Source of the DNA: a virus
Lineage: Duplodnaviria; Caudoviricetes
Length of the DNA stretch: 61,398 nt
Virus record (IMG/VR): IMGVR_UViG_3300029309_000028
Coordinates: 1 to 61,398 of that record
Reading direction: 5' to 3' (one strand)
Shown here: positions 11,730 through 53,030 of the stretch, one piece after another
Numbering within the stretch: the first letter of the stretch is position 1
Layout of the letters: each line of letters opens with the position of its first letter
Program-made: the position numbers and the translations under genes
Notes under the pieces: model-generated
The model's input: the letters and a program-made list of their open reading frames with translations, nothing else
Told to the model about the DNA's origin: nothing
Database searches by the model: none

Positions 11730-11739
11730 TAAATATAAT

Positions 11740-14700
11740 ATGTTTGAATTACAAGGCGATACATATACTTTAAAGGAGCTTGAAGACTTTGCTTCTCAAC
11801 AAAATTTAGACTTTGATAGTTTCATGTCTGATATGAAAACTAAAGGTTTAGTAGATAAAAGAGAGAAAGAAGATACAAAACAAGCTTTACCTTTTGGCGC
11901 TAAAGTAGCTGTAACAACTGGAAAAGCTTTTGAAACTGGCGTTGATGTTGCTACTGGTTTATCTAAAATAGTAAAAGATTTAATAACTGATGAAGAAGAA
12001 AGAGAAGAAACAAAACAAGCTTTAAAAAACCAATTTGATAACGTTCCTATTAAATTACGTAATACTTTTTTTAATCAAATACCTGCTGCTGTTGTTGATT
12101 TAACAACAAGAGATCTTACAGGTATGCAAAAACCAGAAGTTAGAGAAAAAGCTAGTGAGTTTTTAAAAAATAAGTATAAAGAAATAGATGTTGTAAATAA
12201 ATATTTAATAAAAGATACTGGTGAAGGTATTGTTAAAGGTATAAAGCAAGGTGATGCTTCAGATTTTGTAAGCGGTTTAGTTGGCGCTAACTTACAAATG
12301 GTAGAAACAGTAGTACCAGCTATGTTAACTGGAGGCGCTAGTTTACCTTTTCAAGTGATAGCGCCTATGTATACTGATTATAACATAACTAAAGCTGAAA
12401 ATTTATATGGTAAAAATGATCCTGAAGCTTTAAATAAGTTAATTAGCTCTGGTGAAACAGAAGTTGCAACGCCTTTAGCTTTAGGTCTTATTGCTACTGG
12501 TTTTGAATACATAGGGTTTAAAGGTATAACTAAATACATGCTAGGTAATCAAGCCGCTAGTAAAATGGCTTCAAATTTATTTTTTACAAATAACAGAGAA
12601 GGTGTAACTGAATTATTACAAAATGGTGTAGAAAGTATAAGCACGGCTAAAGCTCAAGGAAAAAGTGATGAAGATGCTATGCAAGAATTTTTTAAAGGTA
12701 TATTTAGCGAAGAAGGTTTAGAGTCATATTTAAATGGTTTTGTTGGAAGCGTTGGTATAAGTACAGCTGGTAGAGCTGTAAATAGAGCTTTAAGAACTGA
12801 TAAAGCTAGCGTGAAAGAAATAAATGAACAAATAAGTAATTTAGCTGAATTAAATTTAGCTAAAAACTCTACTAGAGATGCAGAAGTTAAAGAAGCTTTA
12901 GAACAAGAAATAGAACAAAAAGAACAAGATTTTAAAAAATATATAACTGATAAAAGAAAAGTATCAGAGCTTTTAAACAATGAGCAAAAAATAAATTTAG
13001 TAAATTTTGTTAAACAAAAAGACAATATTAGATCAAAAGCTGAGTCTTTAAAAAATAAATTAGAAAATAATCAGATTACTACAAAAGATTTTGGTTATGC
13101 TATAAGAAGTTTAAATAATCAAAGCAATAGAATAACTGAACAGATTGAGCTTATTAATGAAACAGCAAAAAAACAAACAGCTGTAAAAGCTGCTGAAGAC
13201 GTAAGTCAAATTATAAAAGAAACTGGTTTAGAAGGTGAAGTTACAGAATTATCTTCTGAAGAAATATCTAACTTAGACATAGAACAAGCAAAAGAAGCAT
13301 CTAAACAATTTGGTTTTATAGCTCAAAGAAAAGACGGTAGTTTTAATATAATTTTAAACGAAGATAAACCATCTCTTGGCACAGCTGCTCACGAATTAAT
13401 GCATGCTATATTATATAAAACTATAGGTGGTAATCAAGAACTACAAGACTCTATAGGTAGCGCTTTAACAAGTTTTGTTAATGACAAAAAAGGTGGCGTA
13501 AGCCAAGCTTTTATAAACCGTATGAAACCTTACATTAATGATAAAAACTTTGGAGAAGAAGTTATTACTGTTATGTCAGAGTCTATGCTTGATGGTAGTT
13601 TAAACTTTAACGAAAATTTATTTACAAAACTACGAGACTCTTTTAGAAGATTTTATCAAAAAATTACAAACAAAGACGTAGAGTTTAATACAGGTAGAGA
13701 TGTTTATAATTTTATAAAAGATTATAATAAAAGTATTAAAGAAGGTAAATTAAGTCCTAGAATATTAAAAGCTGCTACTGAAGGTGTTAAAGGTAAATTA
13801 GTTAAAGGTAAAGTTAAACCTGAAGATACCGTACAAATGTCTAAAGAAGCTTCTGATAATGTTCAAAGATTATATGATACTAAAGAAGCTAATTTTGAAG
13901 CTAAAATTATAAATGAGTTTAAGCCAATAGTAAGTCGTATAGTTGAAAGACGTAGTCAAGCACCTAACTTTGATAGAGAGTTATTAACTAGTGAAATAGA
14001 AATAGGTGAAAGAGGTGTATTAGATTTAATTAGAGATTATAAACCAGATTCAGGTGTACCTTTAGCTGCTTATATAAATAAGTTTTTACCAGCAAGAGCC
14101 ATAGAAGCTTCTAGACGTGTTTTAGGTGAAGAATTTACAGAAGACGTAACAGAGGCAAGAGGTGTTGAAGCTAGAGAAGAAACCGTTGAAGTTGAAACAA
14201 AACCAAAACCTAAAAAAATAGTTTTAGCTGATAGATTAAATGTTAAAAGTAAAGTTGATAAAGCTATAAAAGAACAATTACCAAAGCTAGACGTTAAAGA
14301 ATTAACGTTTAAAAAATTAAAAAACTTAGTACCTGATATTACTGGCGAAATGTTTGGTATAAGCTCTAGAAAATTAAAAACTTTAGCAAACATAACTAAA
14401 AAAGAGCTACAAGCTGCGCAAATGTTTATTAATAAAAATGCTGATTTGTTAATAGCAATGTTACCAGAAGGCTCTACAGTAAGTGGTACATCTACAGGTG
14501 TACCTAACACTTTATTAAAAGCTTTTTACACAAAAACAGATAGAGCTAAAATGGCTAAAACAGGTAGTACCTCTGGTTTAGCGATTCAAGTAAAAAATAA
14601 AATAAATAAAAAAGAGTTTTTAGAAGTTTTTGGTATTATTGATGGTAAACCACAACGTGATGATAGAAACACATCTGCTAGAGTGTTAGCGTTAGCTAAT

Positions 14701-17700
14701 TTAACTGGTAAAATGATGACTAATCAAACTGTGAGAGAAAATTTAGAGTTATTAGGTAATAGTGAGCAAACTATAAAAAACATTAGAGAAGGCGCTTCTA
14801 GTGTTATGTTTAATAAAGAAGCTGTTTTAGATATAGACTTAAATTTACCTGAATTAAATTTAAATGATCCTAAAAATAGTTTTGAAAATATTGATATATT
14901 TGTAGATAAAATAGCTTTACTCGCTACTTATGGTAAGCTTGGTATAATTAGAGCTGTTGATTTACGGTCTACAATTACTAATAGCGCTGCAAAAGAGTAT
15001 GTAAGAACAAATACTATATTTGAAGATTTAGGTTTATTTACAATTGATGGTAAAATACAAGGTAAAGAAGTAGATATAAAGTTTCAAAGACCTGATCAAA
15101 AAACAGTTTTAGGTAAAAACGTAAAAGAGATAACTAAAAAACAAGCTAGAGATTATAATAAAAACGGAAAAGCTAATTTTAATGATATGGTAAATATGAT
15201 TAAAAAAGCTATAGAAGCAAATCCTGATGATAAAATACTTCAAGCTGCTATAAAAAAATACTTACAAGCCGCGACTTACGACACGTCACACCCTTTAAGA
15301 CAAGGTGCTGAGTATATTGGAGGCGATGTTACTGCTACTGGCGAGATAAGATACGAGCATGCTGTTCAAGCTGCTACAGTAAGAGATTTATTACTAGATG
15401 TTTTAATAAATAGGCCAAAAGAGTTTAATAAAACAATGAAGGCTATACAAAAAAACTATAAACTAATAGCTTTATCTAAAAAAAATGATGATGCTTTAAA
15501 CTCTTCTAGTTATATAAACGAAAAAGGTGAAATAGTGTTTTACAGTAACGGTATGGGTGTTGGTTGGGATATTTTTATTGATAATTGGTTTGATAGATAT
15601 TTTAACACAGATGTTAATGTTATAGATCCTAATAATCTTAGATTAATTAAAAACGGTAAAACTTTTGCTCAAGAGTATGGTGTTACTATGTCTGGTAAAA
15701 TACCTGCTTTAAACAGTAGCGTTGCAAATGTAAAAATAATTGATAAAGCTATAAATAAAGGTAGATTACTTAGTTTTTCAAAAACACCAAAAGGTATTAG
15801 TATATTAGACTTTGATGATACACTAGCAACTACAGAGTCTTTAGTAAAGTATATAGCTCCAGATGGTAATACAGGTACTTTAAATGCAGAGCAATATGCT
15901 AGTACTTATGAAGATTTATTAGATCAAGGTTTTACTTTTGATTTTTCAGATTTTAATAGAGTTGTAAAAGGTAAATTAGCACCTCTGTTTAATAAAGCTT
16001 TAAAACTACAAAGCAAGTTTGGTCCAGAAAATATGTTTGTGTTAACAGCTAGACCACCTGCAGCGCAAAAACCTATATTTGACTTTTTAAAAGCAAACGG
16101 TTTAAATATACCTTTAAAAAATATAACTGGCTTAGGTAATAGTACTAGTGAAGCAAAAGCCTTATGGATAGCTGATAAAGTTGGTGAAGGTTATAATGAT
16201 TTTTATTTTGCTGATGATGCTTTACAAAACGTGCAGGCTGTAGATAACATGTTAGAGCAATTTGATGTTAAACGTAAAGTGCAGCAAGCTAAGTTACAGT
16301 TTAGTAAAGATTTAGACGGTGAGTTTAACAGTATAATAGAAGATGTAAAAGGTATAAAAGCTGAAAAAAGATATTCACAAGCTAAAGCTAGAAAACGTGG
16401 TGAAGGTAAAGGTAGATTTAGATTTTTTGTACCACCATCACATGAGGATCTTGTAGGTTTGTTGTATAACTTTATAGGTAAAGGCGCAAAAGGTAACAAG
16501 CATAGAGACTTTTTTGAAAAAGCTATAGTAAAACCATTAAACAGAGCTTATAACGAATTAAATATAGCTAAACAGTCTATAGCAAACGATTATAAAGCTT
16601 TAATAAAAGCTTTTCCAGATATAAGAAAAAAATTAACAAAGAAAACTCCTGACGGTGATTATTATTATTCTGATGCTGTAAGAGTTTATTTGTGGAATAA
16701 ATCAGGTTTTGATATACCTGGTATGTCAAAAACAGATGTACAAGAGTTAGTTGATTTAGTAACTAGTGATGGTGAATTACAAGCTTTTGCAGATAACATA
16801 GGTGTAATATCAAAACAAGAACAAGGTTATGTTGAACCTAGCGAGGAGTGGCAAGCTGGTGATATAAGAACTGATTTAGCAGATGCTACAGGTAGAGTTG
16901 GTAGAAAAAAGTTTTTTGCTGAGTTTATAGAAAATGCAGATGTAATATTTAATAAAGAAAATTTAAATAAAATAGAAGCTGCTTATGGTATTGATTTTAG
17001 AGAAGCTTTAGAAGATGTTTTATATAGAACTAAAACAGGTACAAATAGAACTGTAGGTCAAAATAAAATTGTTAATAGATTTTTAGATTATTTAAACGGA
17101 TCTATAGGTGCTACAATGTTTTTTAACGCAAGATCAGCTGTATTACAGACTATATCTACAGTTAACTTTATAAACTTTGGTGATAATAATATATTTGCAG
17201 CATCAAGAGCTTTTGCTAATCAAAAACAATTTTGGTCTGACTTTTCAATGTTGTTTAACTCTGACATGTTAAAACAAAGAAGAGCTGGAGTTGCTTTTGA
17301 TGTTAACGCAAATGAAATAGCTAACGCTGTTAGTAAATCAAAACAACCAGTTAGAGCTGCTATAAGATATTTATTACAAATAGGTTTTTTACCTACGCAG
17401 TTAGCTGATAGTTTTGCAATATCACTCGGTGGTGCTAGCATGTACAGAAATAGAGTTAACACTTATTTAAAACAAGGTTTAGAACAAAAAGAAGCAGAAA
17501 CAAAAGCGTTTAATGACTTTCAAGAAATATCTGAAAGCACACAGCAGTCAGCTAGACCTGATAAAATATCACAACAACAAGCTTCACCGCTTGGTCGTAT
17601 GATATTAGCTTTTCAAAACACACCATCACAGTATGTTAGATTAATGAAAAAAGCTGGTTTAGATTTAATTAATAGAAGAAAAACACCACCTTACGCTAAT

Positions 17701-18375
17701 CAAGCTAAAAGCGATATGTCAAATATATCTAAAATAATATATTATGGCGCTATACAAAATATTATATTTTACGGTTTACAATCAGCAATGTTCGCAATGT
17801 TATTTGACGATGATGAAAAAGATGAAGAGTTTTTTGAAAAGAAAAGAGATAGAATACTTAACGGTAGTTTAGATACTATATTAAGAGGTATGGGTGTTGG
17901 TGGTGCTGTTATATCAACTATAAAAAATACAGCTATAAAATACGCTGAAAATCAAAAGAAAGACTGGGGTAAAGAAGATAATGTTGTTATGATGGAAATG
18001 TTACAATTATCACCACCTATAGGTATTAAAGCTAGAAAACTAAGTAGTGCACAAAAAACTATGGATTTTAATAAAAAAGTAATTGAAGAAATGGACACGT
18101 TTGATATTGATAATCCAGTTTACAGCGCTATAGGTAATTTAATTGAAGCAACTACAAACATACCACTTGCTAGATTACATCGTAAAACAATGAATTTACG
18201 TGAAGCTGCTAACGCTGAAAATGAGTGGTGGCAAAGATTATCTATGGCACTTGGTTGGAGCCGTTGGGATGTTGGTGTAGAAAACAAAGAAGTTGAAGCT
18301 GTTAAAAAAGAAATAAAACAAAGAAACAAAACAAGAGGAAAAGCTAAAAGAAAAGCAACAAGAACAACTAGATAA
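11740..18375 (+). CDS. Giant multidomain (polyvalent) virion ejection protein: zincin HExxH peptidase, sigma70 region-2-like domain, possible His-Me nuclease-like domain, HAD phosphatase, helical C-terminus
   Basis: HELMH at 13390-13404; sigma-like segment at 13906-14118; DFDDT...LTAR...FADD HAD motifs at 15808-16218; ATG at 11740 is more plausible than GTG at 11722. Confidence 0.7.
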   Translation: MFELQGDTYTLKELEDFASQQNLDFDSFMSDMKTKGLVDKREKEDTKQALPFGAKVAVTTGKAFETGVDVATGLSKIVKDLITDEEEREETKQALKNQFDNVPIKLRNTFFNQIPAAVVDLTTRDLTGMQKPEVREKASEFLKNKYKEIDVVNKYLIKDTGEGIVKGIKQGDASDFVSGLVGANLQMVETVVPAMLTGGASLPFQVIAPMYTDYNITKAENLYGKNDPEALNKLISSGETEVATPLALGLIATGFEYIGFKGITKYMLGNQAASKMASNLFFTNNREGVTELLQNGVESISTAKAQGKSDEDAMQEFFKGIFSEEGLESYLNGFVGSVGISTAGRAVNRALRTDKASVKEINEQISNLAELNLAKNSTRDAEVKEALEQEIEQKEQDFKKYITDKRKVSELLNNEQKINLVNFVKQKDNIRSKAESLKNKLENNQITTKDFGYAIRSLNNQSNRITEQIELINETAKKQTAVKAAEDVSQIIKETGLEGEVTELSSEEISNLDIEQAKEASKQFGFIAQRKDGSFNIILNEDKPSLGTAAHELMHAILYKTIGGNQELQDSIGSALTSFVNDKKGGVSQAFINRMKPYINDKNFGEEVITVMSESMLDGSLNFNENLFTKLRDSFRRFYQKITNKDVEFNTGRDVYNFIKDYNKSIKEGKLSPRILKAATEGVKGKLVKGKVKPEDTVQMSKEASDNVQRLYDTKEANFEAKIINEFKPIVSRIVERRSQAPNFDRELLTSEIEIGERGVLDLIRDYKPDSGVPLAAYINKFLPARAIEASRRVLGEEFTEDVTEARGVEAREETVEVETKPKPKKIVLADRLNVKSKVDKAIKEQLPKLDVKELTFKKLKNLVPDITGEMFGISSRKLKTLANITKKELQAAQMFINKNADLLIAMLPEGSTVSGTSTGVPNTLLKAFYTKTDRAKMAKTGSTSGLAIQVKNKINKKEFLEVFGIIDGKPQRDDRNTSARVLALANLTGKMMTNQTVRENLELLGNSEQTIKNIREGASSVMFNKEAVLDIDLNLPELNLNDPKNSFENIDIFVDKIALLATYGKLGIIRAVDLRSTITNSAAKEYVRTNTIFEDLGLFTIDGKIQGKEVDIKFQRPDQKTVLGKNVKEITKKQARDYNKNGKANFNDMVNMIKKAIEANPDDKILQAAIKKYLQAATYDTSHPLRQGAEYIGGDVTATGEIRYEHAVQAATVRDLLLDVLINRPKEFNKTMKAIQKNYKLIALSKKNDDALNSSSYINEKGEIVFYSNGMGVGWDIFIDNWFDRYFNTDVNVIDPNNLRLIKNGKTFAQEYGVTMSGKIPALNSSVANVKIIDKAINKGRLLSFSKTPKGISILDFDDTLATTESLVKYIAPDGNTGTLNAEQYASTYEDLLDQGFTFDFSDFNRVVKGKLAPLFNKALKLQSKFGPENMFVLTARPPAAQKPIFDFLKANGLNIPLKNITGLGNSTSEAKALWIADKVGEGYNDFYFADDALQNVQAVDNMLEQFDVKRKVQQAKLQFSKDLDGEFNSIIEDVKGIKAEKRYSQAKARKRGEGKGRFRFFVPPSHEDLVGLLYNFIGKGAKGNKHRDFFEKAIVKPLNRAYNELNIAKQSIANDYKALIKAFPDIRKKLTKKTPDGDYYYSDAVRVYLWNKSGFDIPGMSKTDVQELVDLVTSDGELQAFADNIGVISKQEQGYVEPSEEWQAGDIRTDLADATGRVGRKKFFAEFIENADVIFNKENLNKIEAAYGIDFREALEDVLYRTKTGTNRTVGQNKIVNRFLDYLNGSIGATMFFNARSAVLQTISTVNFINFGDNNIFAASRAFANQKQFWSDFSMLFNSDMLKQRRAGVAFDVNANEIANAVSKSKQPVRAAIRYLLQIGFLPTQLADSFAISLGGASMYRNRVNTYLKQGLEQKEAETKAFNDFQEISESTQQSARPDKISQQQASPLGRMILAFQNTPSQYVRLMKKAGLDLINRRKTPPYANQAKSDMSNISKIIYYGAIQNIIFYGLQSAMFAMLFDDDEKDEEFFEKKRDRILNGSLDTILRGMGVGGAVISTIKNTAIKYAENQKKDWGKEDNVVMMEMLQLSPPIGIKARKLSSAQKTMDFNKKVIEEMDTFDIDNPVYSAIGNLIEATTNIPLARLHRKTMNLREAANAENEWWQRLSMALGWSRWDVGVENKEVEAVKKEIKQRNKTRGKAKRKATRTTR

Positions 18376-20045: not shown

Positions 20046-20327
20046 ATGGCAAAAGAATTAAATGAAGATACTAGCTTTAAAGTAAGCGTAAAAACATTAG
20101 TAGCAATAGGTGCTGGTTTATCAGCTTTAATAGGTATGTGGTTTACACTACAAGCCGATATTGCAGAAGCGAAAGAACTACCAATATCAGCTCCAGAAGT
20201 TACACGTATGGAGTTTGATATGAAAGATCAATTAGTTAGACAAACAATTATGTCTACACAAGAAGACGTTGCAGAGATAAAAGAAGATATAAAACGTATT
20301 GAAGAAAAAATAGATAAACTAAGATGA
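20046..20327 (+). CDS. Single-pass membrane protein with coiled coil
   Basis: One hydrophobic segment followed by heptad repeats. Confidence 0.55.
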   Translation: MAKELNEDTSFKVSVKTLVAIGAGLSALIGMWFTLQADIAEAKELPISAPEVTRMEFDMKDQLVRQTIMSTQEDVAEIKEDIKRIEEKIDKLR

Positions 20328-20677
20328 AAGCTATAGATATGTCAACTTTTGTTTACGTTCTAATAATGATACTTGTTTTTATGTCAGCAACAGTTTTTGG
20401 ACAAATAAAAGTAATTCAGTTTAACGCTGAGTGGAACCAAACAAACCAAGTGCCTTGGGTACAAGAATTAAAAGACTGTAGAACTATAAGTTTTATTGAC
20501 ATCGGTAAAAACGCTGATGATGCTAAAAAACATAAAATTGCAGTTATACCTACTATAATTATATTTAAAGACGGAGAAGAAGTTGCTAGGTTTCAAGCTG
20601 ATTTAAGCTTTAAAATGGTAGCAACACGTGAAGATATACAAGAGGAAATAGATAATCAATTAATGAGCGACTTTTAA
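20324..20677 (+). CDS. Exported thioredoxin-fold protein lacking CxxC
   Basis: Signal peptide; VIQFNAEWN...IAVIPTIIIFKDGEEVARF matches the Trx pattern with the catalytic Cys replaced. Confidence 0.65.
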   Translation: MKAIDMSTFVYVLIMILVFMSATVFGQIKVIQFNAEWNQTNQVPWVQELKDCRTISFIDIGKNADDAKKHKIAVIPTIIIFKDGEEVARFQADLSFKMVATREDIQEEIDNQLMSDF

Positions 20678-21600: not shown

Positions 21601-22048
21601 AGCATATAGAGGTGTATTAAAAGCTAGAATAACAAAGCTTTACGGTGGAAACGTAACTGTTACTAAAGCTAAAAAATTAAAAGCTAGAAAAGGCGCTACT
21701 TCTAGAGATAAACAATTAGCTAATTGGTTTATTAACATGCAAACTAATAAACCTTCACCTGCTAAACGTAAAGATCCACTTGTTGGTACTGGTAAAAAAC
21801 CAAAAGGTAGTGGAAGACGTTTGTATACTGATGAAAACCCAAAAGATACAGTACGTATTAAATTCGCTACCCCTAGTGATGCTAGAGCGACCGTAGCTAA
21901 AGTTAAAAGAATAAATAAGCCTTACGCACGTAAGATACAAATATTAACTGTAGGAGAGCAGAGAGCAAAAGTAATGAAAAAGACGCAAGTTGCTGCAATA
22001 TTTAAACGTGGTAAAGAAGCAATAAGAAAAGCAAGAAAAAATGTTTAA
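21593..22048 (+). CDS. Small basic protein (LYTDENPKDT motif)
   Basis: K/R-rich; overlaps the neighbouring genes. Confidence 0.6.
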   Translation: MSKAYRGVLKARITKLYGGNVTVTKAKKLKARKGATSRDKQLANWFINMQTNKPSPAKRKDPLVGTGKKPKGSGRRLYTDENPKDTVRIKFATPSDARATVAKVKRINKPYARKIQILTVGEQRAKVMKKTQVAAIFKRGKEAIRKARKNV

Positions 22049-22583
22049 AGATTTTGATATAAGTAGTTTTAAAAAGATGAAGCCGCCAGGTGATAATACT
22101 TTTGACACTATGCAAGAGATTAAAGCGTTAAAAAAAATACCTATAAAAAAAGATTTTGTAAAAAAGTTTGACGATCAAGAAAAAGCTTTTAAACAAACAG
22201 CGGAAAAAGAAGGTATAAAAAATTATGATAATAGTATAGCTGCTAAATTAATAGAAAAATCAGCACCTATAATATTAAAATTAAAAAAATATTTTGATAG
22301 ACCAAGACCAAAAGTTTTGGCTAAAAAAATGAATATAAAAATGAATGATATTGAAATGGCTTCAATGAAGACACCTTCATATCCTTCAGGACACTCTACA
22401 CAAGGTATGTTAATTGGGTTAACATTAAGCGCTAAATACCCTAGATCAAGAAAAGCGTTTATGAAAACAGCTAATAACATATCTGATAGTAGAAATGTTG
22501 CGCATGCACATTACAAAAGTGATAGTGACATGGGTAAAAAACTAGGAAAATCAATGTACAACCATATAAAAAACAAAATTTAA
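22041..22583 (+). CDS. PAP2/haloperoxidase-superfamily phosphatase
   Basis: KKYFDRPRP, PSYPSGHS and SRNVAHAHYKSD are the three PAP2 motifs. Confidence 0.85.
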   Translation: MFKDFDISSFKKMKPPGDNTFDTMQEIKALKKIPIKKDFVKKFDDQEKAFKQTAEKEGIKNYDNSIAAKLIEKSAPIILKLKKYFDRPRPKVLAKKMNIKMNDIEMASMKTPSYPSGHSTQGMLIGLTLSAKYPRSRKAFMKTANNISDSRNVAHAHYKSDSDMGKKLGKSMYNHIKNKI

Positions 22584-29824: not shown

Positions 29825-30235
29825 TTAAAACTTATAAGATATAGTAAAATTTAATTTACCATCATATTCATCATCACTATTTTTCTTCATTGAAACAGTG
29901 TAGTTAGGATCAATATATAGGCCTTGCCAAATATTAAACGAGTAACCTACGCCTAAATCTAATCTGTCTACATACTCACCTTCACCTTCGGTATCGAACG
30001 AACCGTAAGCCCAACAGTTATCAGCAAAAGTATATCTTGCCATTACTTCATAGTTGTCTTCACCGTCCATTTCTAAACCTAACATAAGTATATCGCTAAC
30101 ATTATAACCAACAGCTAAGTTATCAGTGAAGTTGTATTCATCTTCAACTTCTGTAACTGTAGTCATAACTGTCATCTGCGCTGACGCTACTATTGTAGCT
30201 ACACTGAATAACATTGTTAAAAATAATTTGTTCAT
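29825..30235 (-). CDS. Small outer-membrane beta-barrel protein
   Basis: Signal peptide ending ASA-Q; amphipathic strands; C-terminal ISYKF. Confidence 0.7.
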   Translation of the reverse strand: MNKLFLTMLFSVATIVASAQMTVMTTVTEVEDEYNFTDNLAVGYNVSDILMLGLEMDGEDNYEVMARYTFADNCWAYGSFDTEGEGEYVDRLDLGVGYSFNIWQGLYIDPNYTVSMKKNSDDEYDGKLNFTISYKF

Positions 30236-30249
30236 AATAATTGTTTTAG

Positions 30250-32118
30250 TTATAAGCTTGTTATTTCACAAGATCCACCAGCACAAGCTAATTCACTAGA
30301 TAGATCTGTTTGGTCAGTTGCTTCTTTTACTTTTGTTATATCAACATCATGTAAAGATTTAACTAACTTATTAAACTCCGATTTTTTAATATCTTCAAAA
30401 GGAGCTTGTGTGTATGTTCCACCATCATACGGTAACACAGATAAACCATTATAGTATTCTCTGTTTCTCCACATCCACTCACCTGCTTTATCCCAGTCTT
30501 CTTGTTTTAAACTTATTGTAGCTGAAACGTTATGTGTGTTACTGCCAGATCTATGACCAGCTTTAACCCAGTTTTCTGCTATAAGCTTAACACGTTCTAA
30601 CAAGTCAAACGCAGACTCAGTTCTTAATATAGAACCTTCTGGTGATGACTGCGGTATTTCTATTACTGCAGTATCGTGTGGCCTGAAATATTCATCTTGA
30701 ACAAGTTCAGGGTGGTTTTGTTTTAGATATGTGTATATAGCTTCGTTCTTTCCTACACGAAGTCTACGTACATAATAATCATTATGCCACGCGTGAATAC
30801 CTGATGATGTACCGAGTACAAGAGACGTTGTCCCTGCGGGTTTAACACATGTTGTTCTTGCTGCTCTGTTGATACCAATAAGCTTTGCAACTCTAGTATT
30901 TTCACGCTTAACAACATCTGCGGCTTTATTCATATCTAAATTTAAAACTTTGTTTGACGCTATACCAGTCATTGAAACACCAATTAAAGCGTCACGTTCA
31001 GTAGTCTCTTGCCATACTTCTCTAAGATAATGAAACTCTGTATATCCAGCTTGTAACGTACCTATAAATGAAGCCGCTTTTACTCTAGCGTTTAGATCAT
31101 CTTGATCTTCAATGTTTGATACATTTACTTCGCATAAGTTACAAAACTGAAACGGTCTTAGTGCTATTTCACAACAAGGGTTTGTACCCCAGTCTTTATC
31201 GTTGTTAAAATAAATACCAGGCTCACCGCTACCTGACAACTCAATACGTTTCCATAGATCTAAGAAAAACTCTTTAGTTATCTTGTGTCTTACTAAAACA
31301 GCTGAGTTGTTTGCTCTACCTCGTTGTGGGTTTGTTTCCCACCAGTTACCTGATTTACACGAGACCATCTCATCATCTTTCGCACTAAATAACGATATAA
31401 GAGCTGCTCTTCTGATTCCTCCCGCCAAGACAGCATCCGCAATATGGCAGATAATATCGTGAACTTCAAGCGTTGTAAGTTTTGCACTATCTTGTTTTGC
31501 ATCTAATATTCCTTTAATTTTTAATAAACACTCTTTTAACGGTTGAGGCCCAGGAGCTTTACCGCCAGACGTAACTAGCAATGCTCCTTTTGGCCTAATA
31601 TCAGAATAATCAAACTTTATCTTAGATGATCTCCTAGAGCCTAAATAAGACTTAATTAATACTTTGATTGCGTCTGACCAACCTTCAATACTATCACCGA
31701 TAACAAACCTTCGTGTTCTACCTACAAACGGTTTAGTTACGTGTGGTAGTTTTTCTATATGATGCTTTTGAACACTATAACCAACACCGCAACCAGATAA
31801 CAAAAGAAACATACACTCACTAAAGCTGTCAACGTGGTCAATAGGTAAGTATGAACAGTTGTATAATCTATTCGGGCTGATCTCAATCGGCTTACCGCTG
31901 AACTGAAGCGATCGCATACTTGGTAAAACTTTTTTCTTATATACATATCTATAATTCTCTTCTATTTCATTATATAATTTAGGATATTTTTTTTGGTGCA
32001 TTTCTTTATTACGAGTCACCAGCTCTTCCCATGTTTCTCTTCTGTTAAGTTCTGGGATAAATTTTGCATACTTCATGTACACAGTAATGTCTGATAAAAT
32101 TTTGTTATTTAAATTCAT
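30250..32118 (-). CDS. nrdJ: Class II (adenosylcobalamin-dependent) ribonucleotide reductase
   Basis: TNPCCEIAL, VKPAGTTS, C-terminal ACAGGSC; no beta-subunit gene. Confidence 0.9.
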   Translation of the reverse strand: MNLNNKILSDITVYMKYAKFIPELNRRETWEELVTRNKEMHQKKYPKLYNEIEENYRYVYKKKVLPSMRSLQFSGKPIEISPNRLYNCSYLPIDHVDSFSECMFLLLSGCGVGYSVQKHHIEKLPHVTKPFVGRTRRFVIGDSIEGWSDAIKVLIKSYLGSRRSSKIKFDYSDIRPKGALLVTSGGKAPGPQPLKECLLKIKGILDAKQDSAKLTTLEVHDIICHIADAVLAGGIRRAALISLFSAKDDEMVSCKSGNWWETNPQRGRANNSAVLVRHKITKEFFLDLWKRIELSGSGEPGIYFNNDKDWGTNPCCEIALRPFQFCNLCEVNVSNIEDQDDLNARVKAASFIGTLQAGYTEFHYLREVWQETTERDALIGVSMTGIASNKVLNLDMNKAADVVKRENTRVAKLIGINRAARTTCVKPAGTTSLVLGTSSGIHAWHNDYYVRRLRVGKNEAIYTYLKQNHPELVQDEYFRPHDTAVIEIPQSSPEGSILRTESAFDLLERVKLIAENWVKAGHRSGSNTHNVSATISLKQEDWDKAGEWMWRNREYYNGLSVLPYDGGTYTQAPFEDIKKSEFNKLVKSLHDVDITKVKEATDQTDLSSELACAGGSCEITSL

Positions 32119-32258
32119 TATTTGTCTTTATATATCGTTAAACAAATATCTACAAACAGTAGATATATCACATGGTTAGTTCTGTATTGTTCGACGTATG
32201 ATCTAACGCCGAGTAGAAGACCAGGAAATGTTCCGATACTTAATTCCCAATTTGTCAT
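32118..32258 (-). CDS. Hypothetical 46-aa protein (not in ORF track)
   Basis: ATG at 32258 to TAA at 32118, MTNWELSIGTFPG...; fills the gap with coupled stop/start. Confidence 0.55.
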   Translation of the reverse strand: MTNWELSIGTFPGLLLGVRSYVEQYRTNHVIYLLFVDICLTIYKDK

Positions 32259-32716
32259 TTGATTTTACTTTTGGTTATTAATTCGATTACAGTATCGCAT
32301 TCCTTCTGGTTCTGAGGTTTATATAAAGTTACATGTGGCATATTCGCTTTTACATACTTTTTAAATAATTTCCAACGCATTGGAAAACTTTCATTAGCAC
32401 GGCCTTTGCACTCTATTATAAATGAATTACTTATGAAGTCTGGTGTGTATTTAATTGGTAATATTTTTTTGTTACCTCTGTTTTTAAATTCACCTTTACC
32501 GTTGCTTTGACGCTCGTAACTTTGCACATCAAACTCAAAACCTTCTTGTATTGTATATGTTTTACCTTCGTATTTATTTTTTATTTTAGCTTTTTTAAGA
32601 GCAAGATACATATACTTTTCAAGACCGGAAGCAAACTTGATCCCGTCACAAACTACTTTTTTAGCTTGGACAGGACCACGTTTTCTTTTTAATCTGCCTC
32701 TAATTCTTCTTTTCAT
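32255..32716 (-). CDS. PD-(D/E)XK endonuclease, T7 endonuclease I / resolvase-like
   Basis: FASGLE...YTPDF...IECKG. Confidence 0.75.
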   Translation of the reverse strand: MKRRIRGRLKRKRGPVQAKKVVCDGIKFASGLEKYMYLALKKAKIKNKYEGKTYTIQEGFEFDVQSYERQSNGKGEFKNRGNKKILPIKYTPDFISNSFIIECKGRANESFPMRWKLFKKYVKANMPHVTLYKPQNQKECDTVIELITKSKIK

Positions 32717-32969
32717 TTAATTCTTCTCTTGCAGCTTGTATATACAATATAGCATCCATAAGCTCTTCTTGTATATCGTTTAAATATTCAGCTAAGCCTT
32801 TAACACCAGATGTTCTTTCATCATGTAATGTTTGGCCGTACTTTTCATAACCTATATCTGAACGATCAACAAACTTATCTACAACGTTTTTAACGACTTC
32901 ATCACGAAAGCCATAAGACTTTCTAGCTACGATACCTCGTTTAGCATCTATTATTTCTCTGTCTGACAT
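32700..32969 (-). CDS. All-alpha NTP pyrophosphohydrolase-like protein (probable start MSDRE)
   Basis: R..IGYEKYG.TL...IQEELMDAILY MazG-like acidic helix. Confidence 0.55.
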   Translation of the reverse strand: MSDREIIDAKRGIVARKSYGFRDEVVKNVVDKFVDRSDIGYEKYGQTLHDERTSGVKGLAEYLNDIQEELMDAILYIQAAREELNEKKN

Positions 32970-32970
32970 A

Positions 32971-33792
32971 TTAATCTTTTTTAAATGTTCCGTTATCCAT
33001 TTTACCTGTACGATCTTTAATCTCTTGATATGCTTGTTCAATACAGTCTTCTATTGACACACCAAGCAATTCAGCTAAGTTAGTTAATACAACTACACAA
33101 TCACCAATACCGTCAATAGCATCATGATCTTCGTTTTTAAGTATAGCTCTACACGTTTCACCAACTTCTTCAACAAGCTTTAACGCTTGTGTTTTAGTAT
33201 CACCGTGCTCATACAAACCTCTTTCATCAGCCCACTCTCTAATTAACTCGAAATAACTAGTTTGTAACTTTATACCGTTTTGCTTGTGTTTATGTCTATA
33301 GTCTGACATAATACCACCGGTTAATGTTACATGTGAATGTGGATCGTTGTTATCAAACCATCTAGCAAAAGCTTTATTATATACATAACATCTTTCTTTG
33401 TTATACATAGACTCTTTTACATTTTTCATAATCCATTTAATAGACTCTTCTGTTAACAAACACTCACCGTGTTCTGTTGACCATTTCATACCTATGTTAT
33501 CGATTAATCGACCTTTAAGTTTGTTGACTGGTACAGGAAACGTTGTTGTTTGCTCTGTTACGTTTATCTTCATTTTATTACATTTTAATTTATTATAAGG
33601 TACTTCATCTACTCTATATTTGTAGAATTTTTGCATTACTTGCTCTGCAGCAGATATAAAATCTATATCGTTAGAAGTTTCAAGAACTTCGTACTCGTGT
33701 GGGTAATAACCTTGTTGTTTGTGTACTCTGTTTTCAAGATCAGATGTTACACCTATTTTTTTACCTGGTATGTGATATAAATAGTACGTCAT
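32971..33792 (-). CDS. mazG: Fusion: GIY-YIG-like N-terminus plus C-terminal MazG-like NTP pyrophosphohydrolase
   Basis: YYLYHIPGKKIGVT..L..R; WADERGL...KLVEEVGE...DGIGD. Confidence 0.7.
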   Translation of the reverse strand: MTYYLYHIPGKKIGVTSDLENRVHKQQGYYPHEYEVLETSNDIDFISAAEQVMQKFYKYRVDEVPYNKLKCNKMKINVTEQTTTFPVPVNKLKGRLIDNIGMKWSTEHGECLLTEESIKWIMKNVKESMYNKERCYVYNKAFARWFDNNDPHSHVTLTGGIMSDYRHKHKQNGIKLQTSYFELIREWADERGLYEHGDTKTQALKLVEEVGETCRAILKNEDHDAIDGIGDCVVVLTNLAELLGVSIEDCIEQAYQEIKDRTGKMDNGTFKKD

Positions 33793-34445
33793 ACTTTATC
33801 GTTATATAAATGCATATTGTGTGCAAAGTGGTAGTATACACCAACCTCAACACCGACTTCGTGAGCTATCATTTTTTGTAGCTCTGAAAAACAATACTGA
33901 TCGTTGCAAAAGCCATACCATAGATCGTTACTACGCATAACAACACACATATCTAGTTTATCATGTAGTATTGTAAATTGCACGGCGTAAGTACATGGTG
34001 TGTCTTGTTCATAGGTATTATGCTCTTTACAGTCGTATATACTTATTGCAGCATGTCTTGTGTTATGTTTTTCTTTGAGTTTGTTAATTACATAATATAT
34101 TTGATTATTACGTAACCATTGCCAACCGTAATTAGAATTAACATTACCTTTGCTGTCAGCCATACGTTTCCATATTTCAGGTATTTTACCGTATACCTTA
34201 CCAAGCTCAGATATATTTCTATTACCAGATAAATACCACTGCCATTCGGCTTGAGCATAATCTAGTTTCCAGTTACGTTCTTTGTTTGTGATTTCGTTAG
34301 CTAAAGGATTTGTAATGTAGAAACCTACATTAAACAAAGCTTTTGTGTTGTCAAAATCTACACCGTTTTGTATAATAGCGTCGTGTAGATATTCGTAAGC
34401 TTCGTTAGCTGTTTGGAATTTTTTGTTGTTTATTGTATTTATCAT
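33789..34445 (-). CDS. Thymidylate-synthase-superfamily enzyme, dCMP hydroxymethylase (T4 gp42)-like
   Basis: EWQWYLSG...IWKRMADSKGNVNSNYG, PCT, MRSNDLWYGFCND (Asp at the specificity position), HLY. Confidence 0.75.
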   Translation of the reverse strand: MINTINNKKFQTANEAYEYLHDAIIQNGVDFDNTKALFNVGFYITNPLANEITNKERNWKLDYAQAEWQWYLSGNRNISELGKVYGKIPEIWKRMADSKGNVNSNYGWQWLRNNQIYYVINKLKEKHNTRHAAISIYDCKEHNTYEQDTPCTYAVQFTILHDKLDMCVVMRSNDLWYGFCNDQYCFSELQKMIAHEVGVEVGVYYHFAHNMHLYNDKV

Positions 34446-34695
34446 AATAGTATTTATAGTATTCGTAAACTTTATCTAATACATTATCATCATATCTTTT
34501 TGGATCGTGATGTGATGTGCCATTTATACGTATCTCTATTTGCCAAAGATTATATTCGTGTTTAAAGTCTGGTGTTACACCAATGTGTATGTTTTTATTC
34601 ATACACCATCCGACGATCTTCATTTGATCTTCGTCCCACACTTTTGTAGGGGCTTTTTTCTTTGGTAGCTTTTTTCTCCAGTGCTTCATTCCCAA
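34405..34695 (-). CDS. Hypothetical protein
   Basis: Overlapping ORF in the replication operon. Confidence 0.55.
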   Translation of the reverse strand: MGMKHWRKKLPKKKAPTKVWDEDQMKIVGWCMNKNIHIGVTPDFKHEYNLWQIEIRINGTSHHDPKRYDDNVLDKVYEYYKYYYDKYNKQQKIPNS

Positions 34696-45404: not shown

Positions 45405-46976
45405 ATGGAATACAACTTACCTAGTGAGATCGTCAAAGACTTAAACTTTGGCGATCAAGCTAAAAAACAAATAATAGCTGGCGTTGATAAGCTAGCACAA
45501 GCCGTTAAATCCACATTAGGTGCTTCAGGAAAGTGCGTAATATATGAAGATGCTCGCGGCAAACCGGTCATAACAAAAGATGGTGTAACCGTTGCGCAAA
45601 GCGTAGTCTTATTTGATCCGGTTGAAAACATTGGTGCTACTTTAATTAAAGAAGCAGCTCAAAACACTGTAAGAGAAGCAGGTGATGGTACTACTACAGC
45701 TACAGTTTTAGCGCAAGCAATACTAAAAGATGCTACAGAAGTACAAAAAACAGGTACATCTACAAGAGAAATTAAAGAAGGTATAAATTCTTGTCTTAAA
45801 AAAGTCAACGAATACTTAGAAAACATGTCTATTGACGTAGAAGGTGACATGTTAAGCAATGTTTCTGCTATTTCTTGCAATAATGATGCAGATCTTGGTA
45901 AAATTATCGCCGAAGCTTACACAAAAGTTGGTAAAAATGGTGTAGTTTTGATGGAAACGTCAGAAACTGATGAAACTTACGTAGATTTAGTTGATGGAGT
46001 ACAAATAGACTGCGGTTTAACATCACCAAATTTTGTAACAAACGCAGAAAAACATAAATGTGAGCTAGATAACCCACTTATTTTAATAGTTTCTAGCGAA
46101 ATACCTAATATTCGTAAAATACAAAAAGTATTAGAGCATGTTATTAAAAAAGGTAGAGCATTATTGATAGTAGCGCCAGTTGCACAGCAAGTAAAAGCTG
46201 CATTAATGATGAATAAAGTAAAAGGTAATATAAAAGTTAATATAATTGACTTACCAGGCTTTGGTCCTACTAAAAAAGACACTACTGAAGACTTAGCTGT
46301 ATTAACAGGTGCTACAGTAATTGATGAAGAACTAGGTGATGATCTTGATTTAATAGATATTAATTGCTTAGGTGAAGCTGAATACGCTTCAACAGATGAC
46401 ACTAACACTGTTATAACTACTAAAGATGATATACAACAGGATTTACAAGAAAGAATTGAACTCGTTTCAAAACTCGTTTCTAACGAAAAAAATGGTTTCA
46501 TTAAGAAAAAGCTGGAACAAAGACTGTCTATGCTATCGGGTAGTGTTGGAATCATCAAAGTGGGTGGTAATTCTAAAGTAGAGTTAAAAGAGAAAAAAGA
46601 TAGAGTTGAAGACGCTATATACGCAACTAAAGCTGCTTTGAAAGAAGGTATTGTACCTGGTGGCGGTGTTGCTTTACTAAACGCATCGCAACAAATAACT
46701 TCAAATAATATAGGTGAAACTATATTGCTAAGAGCTATATCATCACCGTTTAATACTATATTAAAAAATGCTGGCTTAGAACAAGTTGGTCCACGACCAT
46801 CAGATGGTGTAGGTGTTAATGTAGTAACTGGTGAAGATGTTAACATGGTAGAAGCTGGTATCGTAGATCCAGTGTTAGTAACTAAATCAGCACTTAAAAA
46901 TGCTGTTAGTGTAGTTTCAACAATTATATCTGCTGATTGTGTAATTTCAAACATAAGAGTAAATGAAGGCGGTTAA
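45405..46976 (+). CDS. groEL: Chaperonin GroEL
   Basis: ITKDGVTVA, AGDGTTTATVLA, EKKDRVEDA, GIVPGGG, GIVDP. Confidence 0.97.
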   Translation: MEYNLPSEIVKDLNFGDQAKKQIIAGVDKLAQAVKSTLGASGKCVIYEDARGKPVITKDGVTVAQSVVLFDPVENIGATLIKEAAQNTVREAGDGTTTATVLAQAILKDATEVQKTGTSTREIKEGINSCLKKVNEYLENMSIDVEGDMLSNVSAISCNNDADLGKIIAEAYTKVGKNGVVLMETSETDETYVDLVDGVQIDCGLTSPNFVTNAEKHKCELDNPLILIVSSEIPNIRKIQKVLEHVIKKGRALLIVAPVAQQVKAALMMNKVKGNIKVNIIDLPGFGPTKKDTTEDLAVLTGATVIDEELGDDLDLIDINCLGEAEYASTDDTNTVITTKDDIQQDLQERIELVSKLVSNEKNGFIKKKLEQRLSMLSGSVGIIKVGGNSKVELKEKKDRVEDAIYATKAALKEGIVPGGGVALLNASQQITSNNIGETILLRAISSPFNTILKNAGLEQVGPRPSDGVGVNVVTGEDVNMVEAGIVDPVLVTKSALKNAVSVVSTIISADCVISNIRVNEGG

Positions 46977-52021: not shown

Positions 52022-52217
52022 TATTGGTAAAGATTATAAAAATGATGCTATGCATTATGCTGTTGGTCAAGAAGTTTACGGTGGACATACTATTTGTGAT
52101 ATAATAGAAGAAGAAGATAAGTTTTCAATATATATTAGAAAAAACAAAGATGTGTTGCCATGGAAAGACTTTAACAAAAACATGGCTGTATCTGTAGAAT
52201 ATAATCTAGAATACTAA
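51996..52217 (+). CDS. Hypothetical protein (start MARLIRK)
   Basis: ATG at 51996. Confidence 0.55.
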   Translation: MARLIRKISIGKDYKNDAMHYAVGQEVYGGHTICDIIEEEDKFSIYIRKNKDVLPWKDFNKNMAVSVEYNLEY

Positions 52218-52807
52218 TGAAAAGCGTTTACAACTTTGTTGTAAAGCCAATAGGTAAAAGATATAATAACGTAAAGAAGGTTGGAAATAAAGAGTTAATT
52301 ATTAACACTGAGATCTTCAACCATCAATACGTTAATAGACAAGCGACTGTAATATCGAAACCTATTATTGGTGATACAGATATAAATGTAGGTAGTGATA
52401 TTATATTACACCACAACGTGTTTAGACGCTGGTATAATGTGAAAGGTATAGAGAAAAATAGTAAGAACTATTTTAATGAAGATACTTATATTGTTTATCC
52501 AGATCAAATATTTTTGTATAAAAAGTTTTGGCAGTGGCACTCACCAAAAGGTTTTTGCTGGGTTAAACCTATAAAAAACAAAGATAAATACGCTAATAGC
52601 GAAACACAAGAAAATATTGGTATTATAAAATATACTGACGGTAGTTTTAAAGTTAATGATCTTGTAGGTTTTACACCTATATCTAATTACGAGTTTGTTA
52701 TTGATGGTGAGCTACTATATAGAGTATATACTAAATTTATTACAATTAAATATGAATATCAAGGAGACGAAGAAACTTATAATCCAAGCTGGGCACAGAG
52801 CAGTTGA
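52217..52807 (+). CDS. Tandem GroES-like (co-chaperonin-like) protein
   Basis: Two FVVKPI/CWVKPI...G.I.....VG.. repeats resembling Cpn10 folds. Confidence 0.5.
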   Translation: MKSVYNFVVKPIGKRYNNVKKVGNKELIINTEIFNHQYVNRQATVISKPIIGDTDINVGSDIILHHNVFRRWYNVKGIEKNSKNYFNEDTYIVYPDQIFLYKKFWQWHSPKGFCWVKPIKNKDKYANSETQENIGIIKYTDGSFKVNDLVGFTPISNYEFVIDGELLYRVYTKFITIKYEYQGDEETYNPSWAQSS

Positions 52808-53030
52808 AGAACTGATTAATGTTGCTAAAGAAAAAATAATAACTAACACAGAAGATGATGTTAGTGCTGATAGATTAAAAAACGCTGCGGCTACGAAAAA
52901 GCTTGCTATATTTGATGCGTTTGAAATACTAAACAGAATACAAGAAGAAGAAAATATACTTGATGGTAAGGAACTAGAAGAAAAGAAACAAAGAGTATTT
53001 AGAGGTTTTGCTGAAGGTAGATCAAAATGA
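52752..53030 (+). CDS. Putative terminase small subunit (start MNIKET)
   Basis: Small helical ORF overlapping the terL start. Confidence 0.5.
   Translation: MNIKETKKLIIQAGHRAVEELINVAKEKIITNTEDDVSADRLKNAAATKKLAIFDAFEILNRIQEEENILDGKELEEKKQRVFRGFAEGRSK

Follow-up and report, generated by a model that had tools for sequence, protein, structure and literature searches.

A predicted dCMP hydroxymethylase and an adjacent MazG fusion suggest a route to 5-hydroxymethylcytosine DNA in a marine podovirus

We analysed a stretch of 61,398 bp, the window, which is the whole of the IMG/VR virus record IMGVR_UViG_3300029309_000028 (estimated 97% complete) and which represents the near-complete genome of a marine podovirus of Bacteroidota type, akin to Flavobacterium and Cellulophaga phages. 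The replication module on its minus strand contains a gene for a 218-residue enzyme of the thymidylate synthase (TS) superfamily (33789..34445, −), predicted here to be a deoxycytidine monophosphate (dCMP) hydroxymethylase, and a gene that shares its first 4 bases with the end of the TS gene and encodes a 273-residue protein (32971..33792, −) combining a T5orf172/GIY-YIG-like region with a MazG domain, a candidate dCTPase. We propose, with a probability of about 0.6, that these two enzymes of the replication operon form a route to 5-hydroxymethyl-dCMP (5hm-dCMP) and that host kinases and polymerase would place 5-hydroxymethylcytosine (5hmC) in the phage DNA. The proposal is carried by the family and active-site signature of the TS homologue and by the order and conservation of the genes around it. 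We hold the assignment of the enzyme to the dCMP hydroxymethylase type with considerable confidence, and we think it likely that virion DNA contains 5hmC or a derivative of it.

The 218-residue translation contains the two motifs, CVVMRSNDLWYGFCND and PEIWKRMADSKGNVNSNYGW, from which an earlier note on this DNA had recognised a TS-family protein with segments similar to T4 gp42; the T4 text aligned to them in PDB entry 1b49 reads mrsndvvfgfrnd and iwqqvasskgeinsnygw. The protein matches the thymidylate synthase domain of Pfam (PF00303) with an E-value of 7.3e-26 and 91.3 bits, against a cut-off of 24.3. Its top match among solved structures is T4 dCMP hydroxymethylase (1b49, E 7.7e-16), the second is the CMP hydroxymethylase MilA (E 2.5e-15), and every ThyA ranks lower. 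It falls below all NCBIfam thymidylate synthase equivalog cut-offs, the best score being 69.5 bits against 327. PHROGs labels it ‘thymidylate synthase’, the label that its close homologues also have in public sources. Since most of its near relatives among the 120 metagenome matches listed are 217–218 residues long (range 217–232), the length of 218 residues does not reflect an artefact of truncation. In the metagenome search with this protein, all 8000 of the 8000 scored proteins had E-values of 1e-5 or better.

We read the active site from an alignment with enzymes of experimentally known product, whose sequences came from public phage records: ThyA of E. coli and Td of RB69 (dTMP); T4 gp42 (5hm-dCMP); RB69 gp48 and the Thanatos enzyme (5-hydroxy-dCMP); and the SPO1, ViI and phiW-14 enzymes (5hm-dUMP). 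The XP12 dCMP methyltransferase and full-length MilA stood outside both the alignment and the tree described below. The residues that decide the reaction are set out in several publications, here in E. coli ThyA numbering. Exchange of Asn177 for Asp turns the enzyme to cytosine, Asp or Glu in place of Leu143 gives hydroxymethylation and Asn in place of Asp169, as in the flavin-dependent 5-hydroxy-dCMP synthases, gives the 5-hydroxy product (PMC13326640). In ThyA, the bulk of Leu143 keeps water out (PMC13326640, PMC6400193), and the signature of hydroxymethylation consists of an Asp three residues before the catalytic Cys, a Ser-x-Tyr motif and the absence of the C-terminal tail (PMC6400193). 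Ser167 and Arg126' go with deoxyribose preference, whereas Ala and Lys, as in MilA, go with ribose (PMC5175136). Among environmental phage contigs, positions 177 and 147 best separate those with modified cytosine from unmodified ones (PMC8670742).

The key residues of the window enzyme are, in its own numbering, E67, S104-N-Y106, R130, D148, C151, T152, S172, D174, D182, H212 and Y214. C151 corresponds to the catalytic Cys (E. coli C146, T4 C148) and E67 to the general-acid Glu (E58, E60). The position of Asn177 is taken by Asp182 (T4 D179), the cytosine-specificity residue, and that of Leu143 by Asp148, three residues ahead of the Cys (T4 D145); the Ser-x-Tyr motif is present as Ser104-Asn-Tyr106 (T4 S94/Y96), and only 4 residues follow Y209, compared to 28 in T4 and 55 in E. 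coli. Position 147 is Thr, likewise in T4, and Ser172 and Arg130 make up the deoxyribose-preferring pair, where MilA has Ala and Lys. Altogether, the window enzyme and T4 gp42 have the same residue at ThyA positions W80, Y94, R126, D143, C146, T147, M165, R166, S167, N168, D169, G173, D177, H207 and Y209; in T4 numbering, Y56, E60, I81, W82, S94-x-Y96, D145, C148, D171, D179, H216 and Y218 are kept. In contrast, ThyA has L143, H147 and N177, the SPO1, ViI and phiW-14 dUMP hydroxymethylases have N147 and N177, and the RB69 and Thanatos 5-hydroxy-dCMP synthases have E143, N169 and V173.

This pattern is shared by the relatives of the window enzyme, for which we collected 80 IMG/VR loci encoding a TS homologue of 58–80% identity. 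D143, C146, T147, M165, D169, G173 and D177 occur in all 80 of these viral-contig homologues, 45 of which end exactly 4 residues past the HxY motif; among 114 full-length representatives obtained by clustering at 50%, D143 is found in 112 and D177 in 114. The dCMP hydroxymethylase type given in the earlier note, as opposed to ThyA, thus gained support from each sequence discriminator that could be tested. A canonical ThyA was rejected on account of D, T and D at positions 143, 147 and 177, the 4-residue tail and the equivalog score, and a 5-hydroxy-dCMP synthase is argued against because position 169 keeps its Asp (Asp174), which is Asn in RB69 and Thanatos.

The note had left open whether the DNA contains 5hmC or 5mC. 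Its cytosine-type reading fits the residues found, and Asp143, Ser-x-Tyr and the missing tail narrow the choice towards 5hmC: because of these three features, we predict that the product is hydroxymethylated rather than methylated. If the enzyme instead methylated dCMP, a reaction reported for phage XP12 and for ThyA N177D mutants, the genome would carry 5-methylcytosine; Asp177 alone is described as switching ThyA to dCMP methylation (PMC8670742, citing older mutagenesis). Yet by the rules in PMC13326640 and PMC6400193, an Asp in place of a bulky hydrophobic residue at position 143 and the presence of Ser-x-Tyr speak against this, and so does the loss of the tail that would close the site so that hydride can be transferred, only 4 residues being left after Y209. 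We therefore regard methylation as quite unlikely.

Compared to T4 gp42 (1b49, 1b5e, 6a9b), the window enzyme is identical at 15 of 19 tabulated E. coli-numbered positions (17 of 18 where both have a residue) and shares with it Asp145, Ser94-x-Tyr96, Asp179 and a short tail, the published marks of hydroxymethylation. The region aligned to T4 spans only residues 62–186, however, and the window protein is shorter (218 vs 246 residues). The match to the CMP hydroxymethylases MilA and BcmA (5b6d, 5jnh) is nearly full-length and includes Asp143 and Asp177, but MilA has Ala and Lys in place of Ser172 and Arg130 (PMC5175136); moreover, MilA and BcmA act in nucleoside-antibiotic pathways, whereas the window gene lies in a phage and not in a biosynthetic cluster. 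The 5-hydroxy-dCMP synthases (RB69 gp48, DLP3 gp80, Thanatos; PMC13326640) share with it the superfamily, Asp177, Thr147 and the short tail. Apart from D169N, they differ in having Val where the window enzyme has Trp80 and Gly173.

The protein encoded directly after the TS homologue can be divided into a T5orf172/GIY-YIG-like region (residues ∼1–65), a conserved middle domain (∼75–150), a disordered linker (150–177) and a MazG domain (∼178–273). Pfam finds PF03819 (E 1.4e-7, 32.1 bits against a cut-off of 22) and, more weakly, PF01503 (0.001) and T5orf172 (0.008), and the PHROGs matches phrog_1992 and phrog_715 are both ‘MazG-like pyrophosphatase’. In 18 homologues the motifs EEVGE and DGIGD are invariant, and a profile of the family matches the MazG structures 1vmg (1e-7), 2yxh and 2gta in the PDB. 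An AlphaFold2 (AF2) model (predicted local distance difference test, pLDDT, 79) shows a β-β-α-β-α element at the N-terminus; for residues 1–150, the ESM Atlas lead was T5orf172, in 19 of 30 hits. Foldseek searches with the MazG model gave human DCTPP1 (7mu5) and mouse dCTPase as best matches (E 0.015–0.03, probability 1.0), and all matches listed were MazG-family or related nucleoside triphosphate (NTP) pyrophosphatases (probability 0.99–1.0). We thus assign the C-terminal domain by sequence and model to the MazG-type all-α NTP pyrophosphatases; that it acts as a dCTPase has about an even chance.

The MazG domain has the same four-helix fold as DCTPP1/RS21-C6 and S-2L MazZ (7ody), with EExxE intact, and its second acidic motif is DxxxD where 1vmg has EELAD. 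Identity to DCTPP1-type proteins is 15–29% at E 0.015–0.05, values close to those for MazG proteins that are not dCTPases, and the N-terminal fusion is absent from DCTPP1/RS21-C6 and similar MazG-type proteins. The T4 gp56–gp42 pair follows the same logic of a hydroxymethylase paired with an all-α NTP pyrophosphatase, but BLASTP gave nothing significant between the fusion and the gp56 dCTPase, so that we dropped the idea of the fusion as a gp56 relative.

Around the TS homologue, related viral contigs of 50–70 kb have the recurrent order primase-helicase, p96, TS, MazG fusion, p113, DUF1064 protein and ribonucleotide reductase (RNR), in which p96 and p113 are orphans described below. Over the 80 loci, homologues of MazG were counted in 76, of p113 in 64, of the DUF1064 protein in 60 and of p96 in 50; many loci end at contig ends, so that these counts are lower bounds. 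In the gene orders that were printed, MazG follows TS directly or after at most two unassigned open reading frames (ORFs), and the positions of p96 and p113 relative to TS are constant. Five loci with otherwise different neighbours (L097–L101) have a stand-alone 100-residue MazG directly after TS. Exceptions are L078 and L091, where TS lies elsewhere and has no adjacent MazG, and L053, with no MazG within reach. A similar association is described in the MetaGPA study (PMC8670742), where TS domains co-occur with dCMP deaminase and with PF01503, a family of the same all-α NTP pyrophosphatase superfamily as the window MazG, in many cases specifically on contigs whose cytosine is modified. MetaGPA contigs share with the window a TS Asp177, a residue other than His at position 147 and a pyrophosphatase of the PRA-PH/MazG superfamily.

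In three loci (L063, L065, L067), TS is separated from a stand-alone 100-residue MazG by a small ORF and a dCMP deaminase gene; the deaminase of L063, at 6654-7067, matches PF00383 with E 4.8e-24, and its trio of TS, deaminase and pyrophosphatase is the combination that MetaGPA reports on cytosine-modified contigs (PMC8670742). Deamination of 5hm-dCMP or dCMP would lead to 5-hydroxymethyluracil or thymine in the DNA, and the genes would then serve a thymidylate-type supply rather than cytosine replacement. This would suit the co-occurrence of TS and deaminase in related contigs and in MetaGPA, as well as the lack of a ThyA or ThyX of the phage's own among the ORFs scanned, which were 59 of the 61 non-nested ORFs of at least 90 residues in the window (all but 29825-30235 and 52695-53030; Pfam or PHROGs). 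However, no deaminase was found among these ORFs either, and the characterised dUMP hydroxymethylases all keep N177. In T4, a deaminase coexists with hydroxymethylcytosine (hmC) synthesis and feeds dTMP, so that its presence in other contigs is no argument for hydroxymethyluracil. We consider this route very unlikely.

The same scans bear on the remaining steps of cytosine replacement. They turned up no kinase or glycosyltransferase, no carbamoyltransferase or deaminase, no DNA polymerase, and no aminotransferase or oxygenase; the carbamoyltransferase and deaminase associated with TS in MetaGPA (PMC8670742) are thus not found in the window. A Walker-A regular expression search returned one convincing P-loop, that of the primase-helicase, and no kinase-type P-loop. 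The statement in the earlier note that no kinase or glycosyltransferase is visible therefore stands at the level of profile searches, which distant or novel kinases could escape. As no DNA polymerase gene was detected, the phage presumably replicates with the polymerase of its host.

Upstream in the proposed pathway is a class II (adenosylcobalamin) RNR (30250..32118, −; phrog_367, E 1.1e-133; PF21995 and PF02867). Its best model is the NTP-reducing ribonucleoside triphosphate reductase RTPR (TIGR02505, 4.8e-84), whose score of 282.9 bits lies under the cut-off of 340. This reductase is the likely source of dCTP; should it indeed be an RTPR, it would yield dCTP in a direct manner, and cleavage by a dCTPase would be the natural way to reach dCMP. 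In the pathway as we envisage it, the RNR would supply deoxynucleotides and the MazG domain of the fusion would cleave dCTP to dCMP and pyrophosphate, a step that would both deplete the canonical nucleotide and feed the hydroxymethylase. The TS homologue would then use methylene-tetrahydrofolate to place a CH2 group on C5 of dCMP via Cys151, and water activated by Asp148 would be added in place of hydride transfer, giving 5hm-dCMP. With neither a kinase nor a polymerase gene found in the phage, we invoke the CMP/dCMP kinase and nucleoside-diphosphate kinase of the host and its replicase to bring the product into phage DNA. As no glycosyltransferase was found, the base would be expected to stay plain 5hmC unless an orphan gene modifies it further.

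Two orphans flank the pair. The 96-residue p96 (34405..34695, −), directly upstream of TS, has homologues but no Pfam, PHROG or NCBIfam match. The ORF of p113 (32700..33041, −) has 113 residues when started at a TTG and 89 when started at the ATG at 32969, which is most likely the true start because most of 56 distinct homologues begin there. The earlier note had seen two adjacent MazG-like genes: this held for 32971-33792, which has PF03819, and failed for 32700-33041, where hhalign against the neighbour's MazG family gave a probability of 1.1%. p113 has no match in Pfam, in NCBIfam or, by sequence or profile, in the PDB, and in PHROGs it falls into families of unknown function only. Its AF2 model (pLDDT 68) is all helical and returned nothing at E 0.001 or better with Foldseek; ESM Atlas likewise gave no family. 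With no similarity detected to MazG, PRA-PH or dUTPase-type families, we rejected p113 as a second MazG as unproven. Its profile scored 8000 of 8000 metagenome proteins at E ≤0.001 in a search of 5.8 billion proteins, none with a Pfam domain or functional name among the 120 matches listed. Invariant residues (89-residue numbering) are D23, R36, S37, G40, K43, Y44, Q67, E68, E69, D72 and Y76. A p113 relative also occurs in the uncultured podovirus MW202828.1, which has no TS homologue (11729-12211, profile E 1.7e-9, annotated ‘prophage lp2 protein 33’).

Some related loci encode further enzymes next to TS. A 2-oxoglutarate-Fe(II) oxygenase (PF13640) lies between TS and the MazG fusion in L054 (1880-2635) and L070 (2892-3587), and just upstream of TS in L100 (270-2948) and L101 (511-3189) there are two 300-residue ORFs of unknown function and a pyridoxal phosphate (PLP)-dependent enzyme (PALP, E 4e-10). 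The L100/L101 cluster, whose TS homologue is 58% identical to that of the window, may be a cytosine hypermodification cluster.

These genes raise the question whether 5hmC is only an intermediate that p113, p96, the non-MazG domains of the fusion or host enzymes convert to a hypermodified cytosine. The invariant R36, S37, K43, Y44, E68, E69 and D72 of p113 are polar and enzyme-like, both orphans are frequent and constant in position, and the oxygenase and PLP-dependent enzyme mark the locus as a hotspot for extra chemistry. Furthermore, known 5hmC phages usually decorate the base, as in T4 and in the carbamoyltransferase system described in PMC8670742. On the other hand, the extra enzymes belong to other contigs and not to the window genome, whose scanned ORFs yielded none of the decorating enzyme classes listed above, and the p113 relative in the TS-less MW202828.1 shows that p113 is not tied to modification. 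Hypermodification is therefore improbable in our view.

A broader reading, which we consider speculative and improbable to a similar degree, is that a globally recurrent family of marine Bacteroidota podoviruses replaces cytosine by 5hmC or a derivative through a reduced pathway, lacking a kinase, a glycosyltransferase and a DNA polymerase of the phage's own, and turns the GIY-YIG-like domain against unmodified host DNA. The T5orf172/GIY-YIG-like domain of the fusion would then act like T4 endonuclease II on unmodified cytosine DNA of the host, and p113 and p96 would fill the missing steps, supplying for example hm-dCMP phosphorylation or further decoration. If true, cytosine would here be replaced before replication by a set of genes of new architecture, with dependence on the replisome of the host.

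Returning to the two-enzyme route to 5hmC, we find that a number of observations weigh against it. The first concern the TS homologue itself. Of the T4 gp42 residues, four are changed (R59A, R124H, R177C, R220D), at positions that contact the folate glutamate tail or provide the second phosphate-binding Arg, and K28 has no equivalent; R177C and R220D affect the folate-tail contacts. The phylogeny proposed as a check in the earlier note, run as a quick maximum-likelihood (ML) tree of 60 rows without an approximately unbiased (AU) test, gave a divided answer. ThyA is split from all other rows with 100% support, while the window clade falls at the base of the non-ThyA rows, in a polytomy that the tree does not resolve (27 of 57 branches lack support), apart from gp42, which is found elsewhere on a long branch and is thus not its sister. 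Since dUMP- and dCMP-type enzymes are interleaved in the poorly supported hydroxymethylase-like group, we dropped tree position as a readout of substrate. As the tree lacks resolution, the assignment rests on active-site residues and not on orthology. These residues may have converged or been retained, and the whole argument draws on sequence signatures of a handful of characterised enzymes.

The relatives of the phage provide further points of this kind. In the closest complete genomes, MW202828.1 and Elemovirus elemoF, TS homologues are absent, so that the gene must be considered accessory. Among cultured phages, the closest homologues belong to BF503P4, BF486P2 and relatives, which are phages of Bacteroides fragilis; they are 46% identical over 94% of the protein and have the same signature as the window enzyme. 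In favour of the route, the second- and third-closest, from Lactobacillus phage ATCCB and Enterococcus phage nattely, have this signature too, and their TS gene lies 1–2 genes upstream of a gene annotated as β-glucosyltransferase. Next to the TS homologue, however, none of the Bacteroides, Lactobacillus and Enterococcus phages had a gene matched by the MazG profile. The Bacteroides fragilis phages differ from the window in encoding a dUTPase and an additional, divergent TS homologue. Both TS homologues of BF503P4 (3154-3915 and 5989-6669) are labelled dCMP hydroxymethyltransferase, and the second, which adjoins the dUTPase, is very divergent (L58, Y80, L173; long branch). The name ‘deoxycytidylate 5-hydroxymethyltransferase’ in these phages is a record label for which we found no experimental paper. 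Our literature search gave nothing on hydroxymethylcytosine in Flavobacterium phages, nor on deoxycytidylate hydroxymethylase in Bacteroidetes phages.

Substrate specificity in MazG proteins is unreadable from sequence, the Foldseek E-values to dCTPases are weak and barely ahead of those to other MazG proteins, and members of this MazG clade are often found in phages that lack a TS homologue. For the steps after hydroxymethylation, T4 needs its own dNMP kinase (gp1) for hm-dCMP and also has α- and β-glucosyltransferases; our scans of the window found neither a dNMP kinase nor a glucosyltransferase, nor a phage DNA polymerase. A related TS homologue expressed without its kinase yielded mere traces of modified base in E. 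coli DNA (PMC13326640).

The last of these points comes from palindromes. The earlier note had called the abundance of C-containing palindromes such as AAGCTT consistent with little restriction-site avoidance, while granting that Ala GCT codons also explain it. AAGCTT is indeed found at 2612, 5535 and 6051, but with 65 occurrences against 66.4 expected from a maximal-order Markov model, it is uninformative, and the observed/expected statistics that the note suggested ran counter to it, as several C-containing hexamers are strongly avoided. In the window, GATATC is absent against 21.2 expected (z −5.6), and CATATG (0 vs 7.5), GGTACC (4 vs 13.5) and GAATTC (0 vs 4.3) are depleted. Pooled over 74 of the 80 related loci (L022–L095), the counts are 109 vs 215.8 for GATATC, 34 vs 108.6 for GGTACC, 28 vs 83.6 for GAATTC and 12 vs 44.1 for GGATCC, with CATATG mildly low (201 vs 237.0). 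The phage family thus avoids GATATC, GGTACC, GAATTC, GGATCC, CATG and TCGA. It is not obvious why a genome with fully protective cytosine modification would show such avoidance; cytosine modification, if present, therefore leaves restriction pressure at these sites. EcoRV-, NdeI- and TaqI-type enzymes belong to the small set able to cleave T4 hmC DNA, and the sequences avoided in the window family include their sites. In the TS-less MW202828.1, GATC (0 vs 126 expected) and CCGG (0 vs 21) are missing, neither of which the TS-bearing family avoids; this contrast is suggestive and a lead only, as it is a single comparison confounded by host. With AAGCTT at expectation and C-containing hexamers avoided, we dropped palindrome statistics as evidence of modification.

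Avoidance of C-containing palindromes is what would be expected of an unmodified genome, in which a divergent thymidylate synthase and a house-cleaning MazG would form an ordinary auxiliary module that boosts dTTP. The name ‘thymidylate synthase’ given to the protein family by PHROGs and public sources would fit such a module, as would the fact that MazG is a common auxiliary gene of phages with no link to modification. The enzyme, however, misses all NCBIfam ThyA equivalog cut-offs widely, has none of L143, H147, N177 and the C-terminal tail, and is separated from ThyA with full support in the tree. We consider an unmodified genome of this kind extremely unlikely.

Of the remaining genes in the operon, the DUF1064 protein (32255..32716, −) matches PF06356 (5.8e-9) and phrog_190 (1.9e-11), which is Holliday-junction-resolvase-like in PHROGs; it belongs to the same operon but probably lies outside the nucleotide pathway. 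The 136-residue ORF at 29825-30235 (−), just downstream of the RNR, has a signal-peptide-like N-terminus (MNKLFLTMLFSVATIVASAQ) and a β-rich, outer-membrane-protein-like sequence, with homologues in 18 of the 80 related loci.

The window genome has a GC content of ∼32% and strand switches at ∼29.8 kb and ∼45 kb. Between these, the replication module on the minus strand encodes the class II RNR, the DUF1064 protein, a primase-helicase, an exonuclease, Erf, a sigma factor and an ATP-dependent ligase; PHROGs and Pfam also identify a portal, capsid-type virion proteins, a tail fibre, an endolysin, GroEL and GroES. The large terminase shares 63.5% identity with its counterpart in MW202828.1 and 45% with those of Flavobacterium Elemovirus phages; identities range from 45 to 64% across Flavobacterium Elemovirus, Cellulophaga phages and MW202828.1, and Tenacibaculum and Maribacter phages rank lower. 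In a megablast search with the region, none of 50,697 phage records matched. An 8-kb stretch around the locus was at least partly present in 20 of 24 listed sequencing runs, from 12 studies with mainly marine or seawater labels; the data were assembled contigs and two sets of raw Illumina WGA reads, in neither of which base modification would show.

Several other genes are of note. GroEL (phrog_5725, E 1e-135) and a GroES-like co-chaperonin are encoded at 45405-46976 and 52217-52807 (+), and the pair is also found in MW202828.1. A 1921-residue ORF (2132-7897, +) contains a C-terminal crAss-virus ‘muzzle protein’ domain (PF25729, E 2.3e-6), which points to a structural link between the Elemovirus-like podovirus group and crAss-like phages; its neighbour, a 2217-residue ORF (11722-18375), has zero Pfam matches. 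The structural/late module further includes a PAP2-superfamily phosphatase (22041-22583, +; E 1e-8) and a thioredoxin-like ORF (20324-20677, +; E 1.1e-5).

Cytosine replacement in the style of T4 is a known phage trick, and the window probably presents it in a new host group, marine Bacteroidota-type as opposed to the Enterobacteria of T4, rather than a new kind of system. The compact 218-residue hydroxymethylase candidate may serve as a reagent. If our proposal is true, Bacteroidota-type podoviruses would join the phages with T4-style cytosine replacement, and plain or lightly decorated 5hmC would occur in an abundant marine phage lineage, which would alter the behaviour of marine viromes under restriction, in some library preparations and in methylation-aware sequencing. 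The phage would also allow one to ask, in a natural setting, whether kinases and a polymerase of the host suffice for full base replacement.

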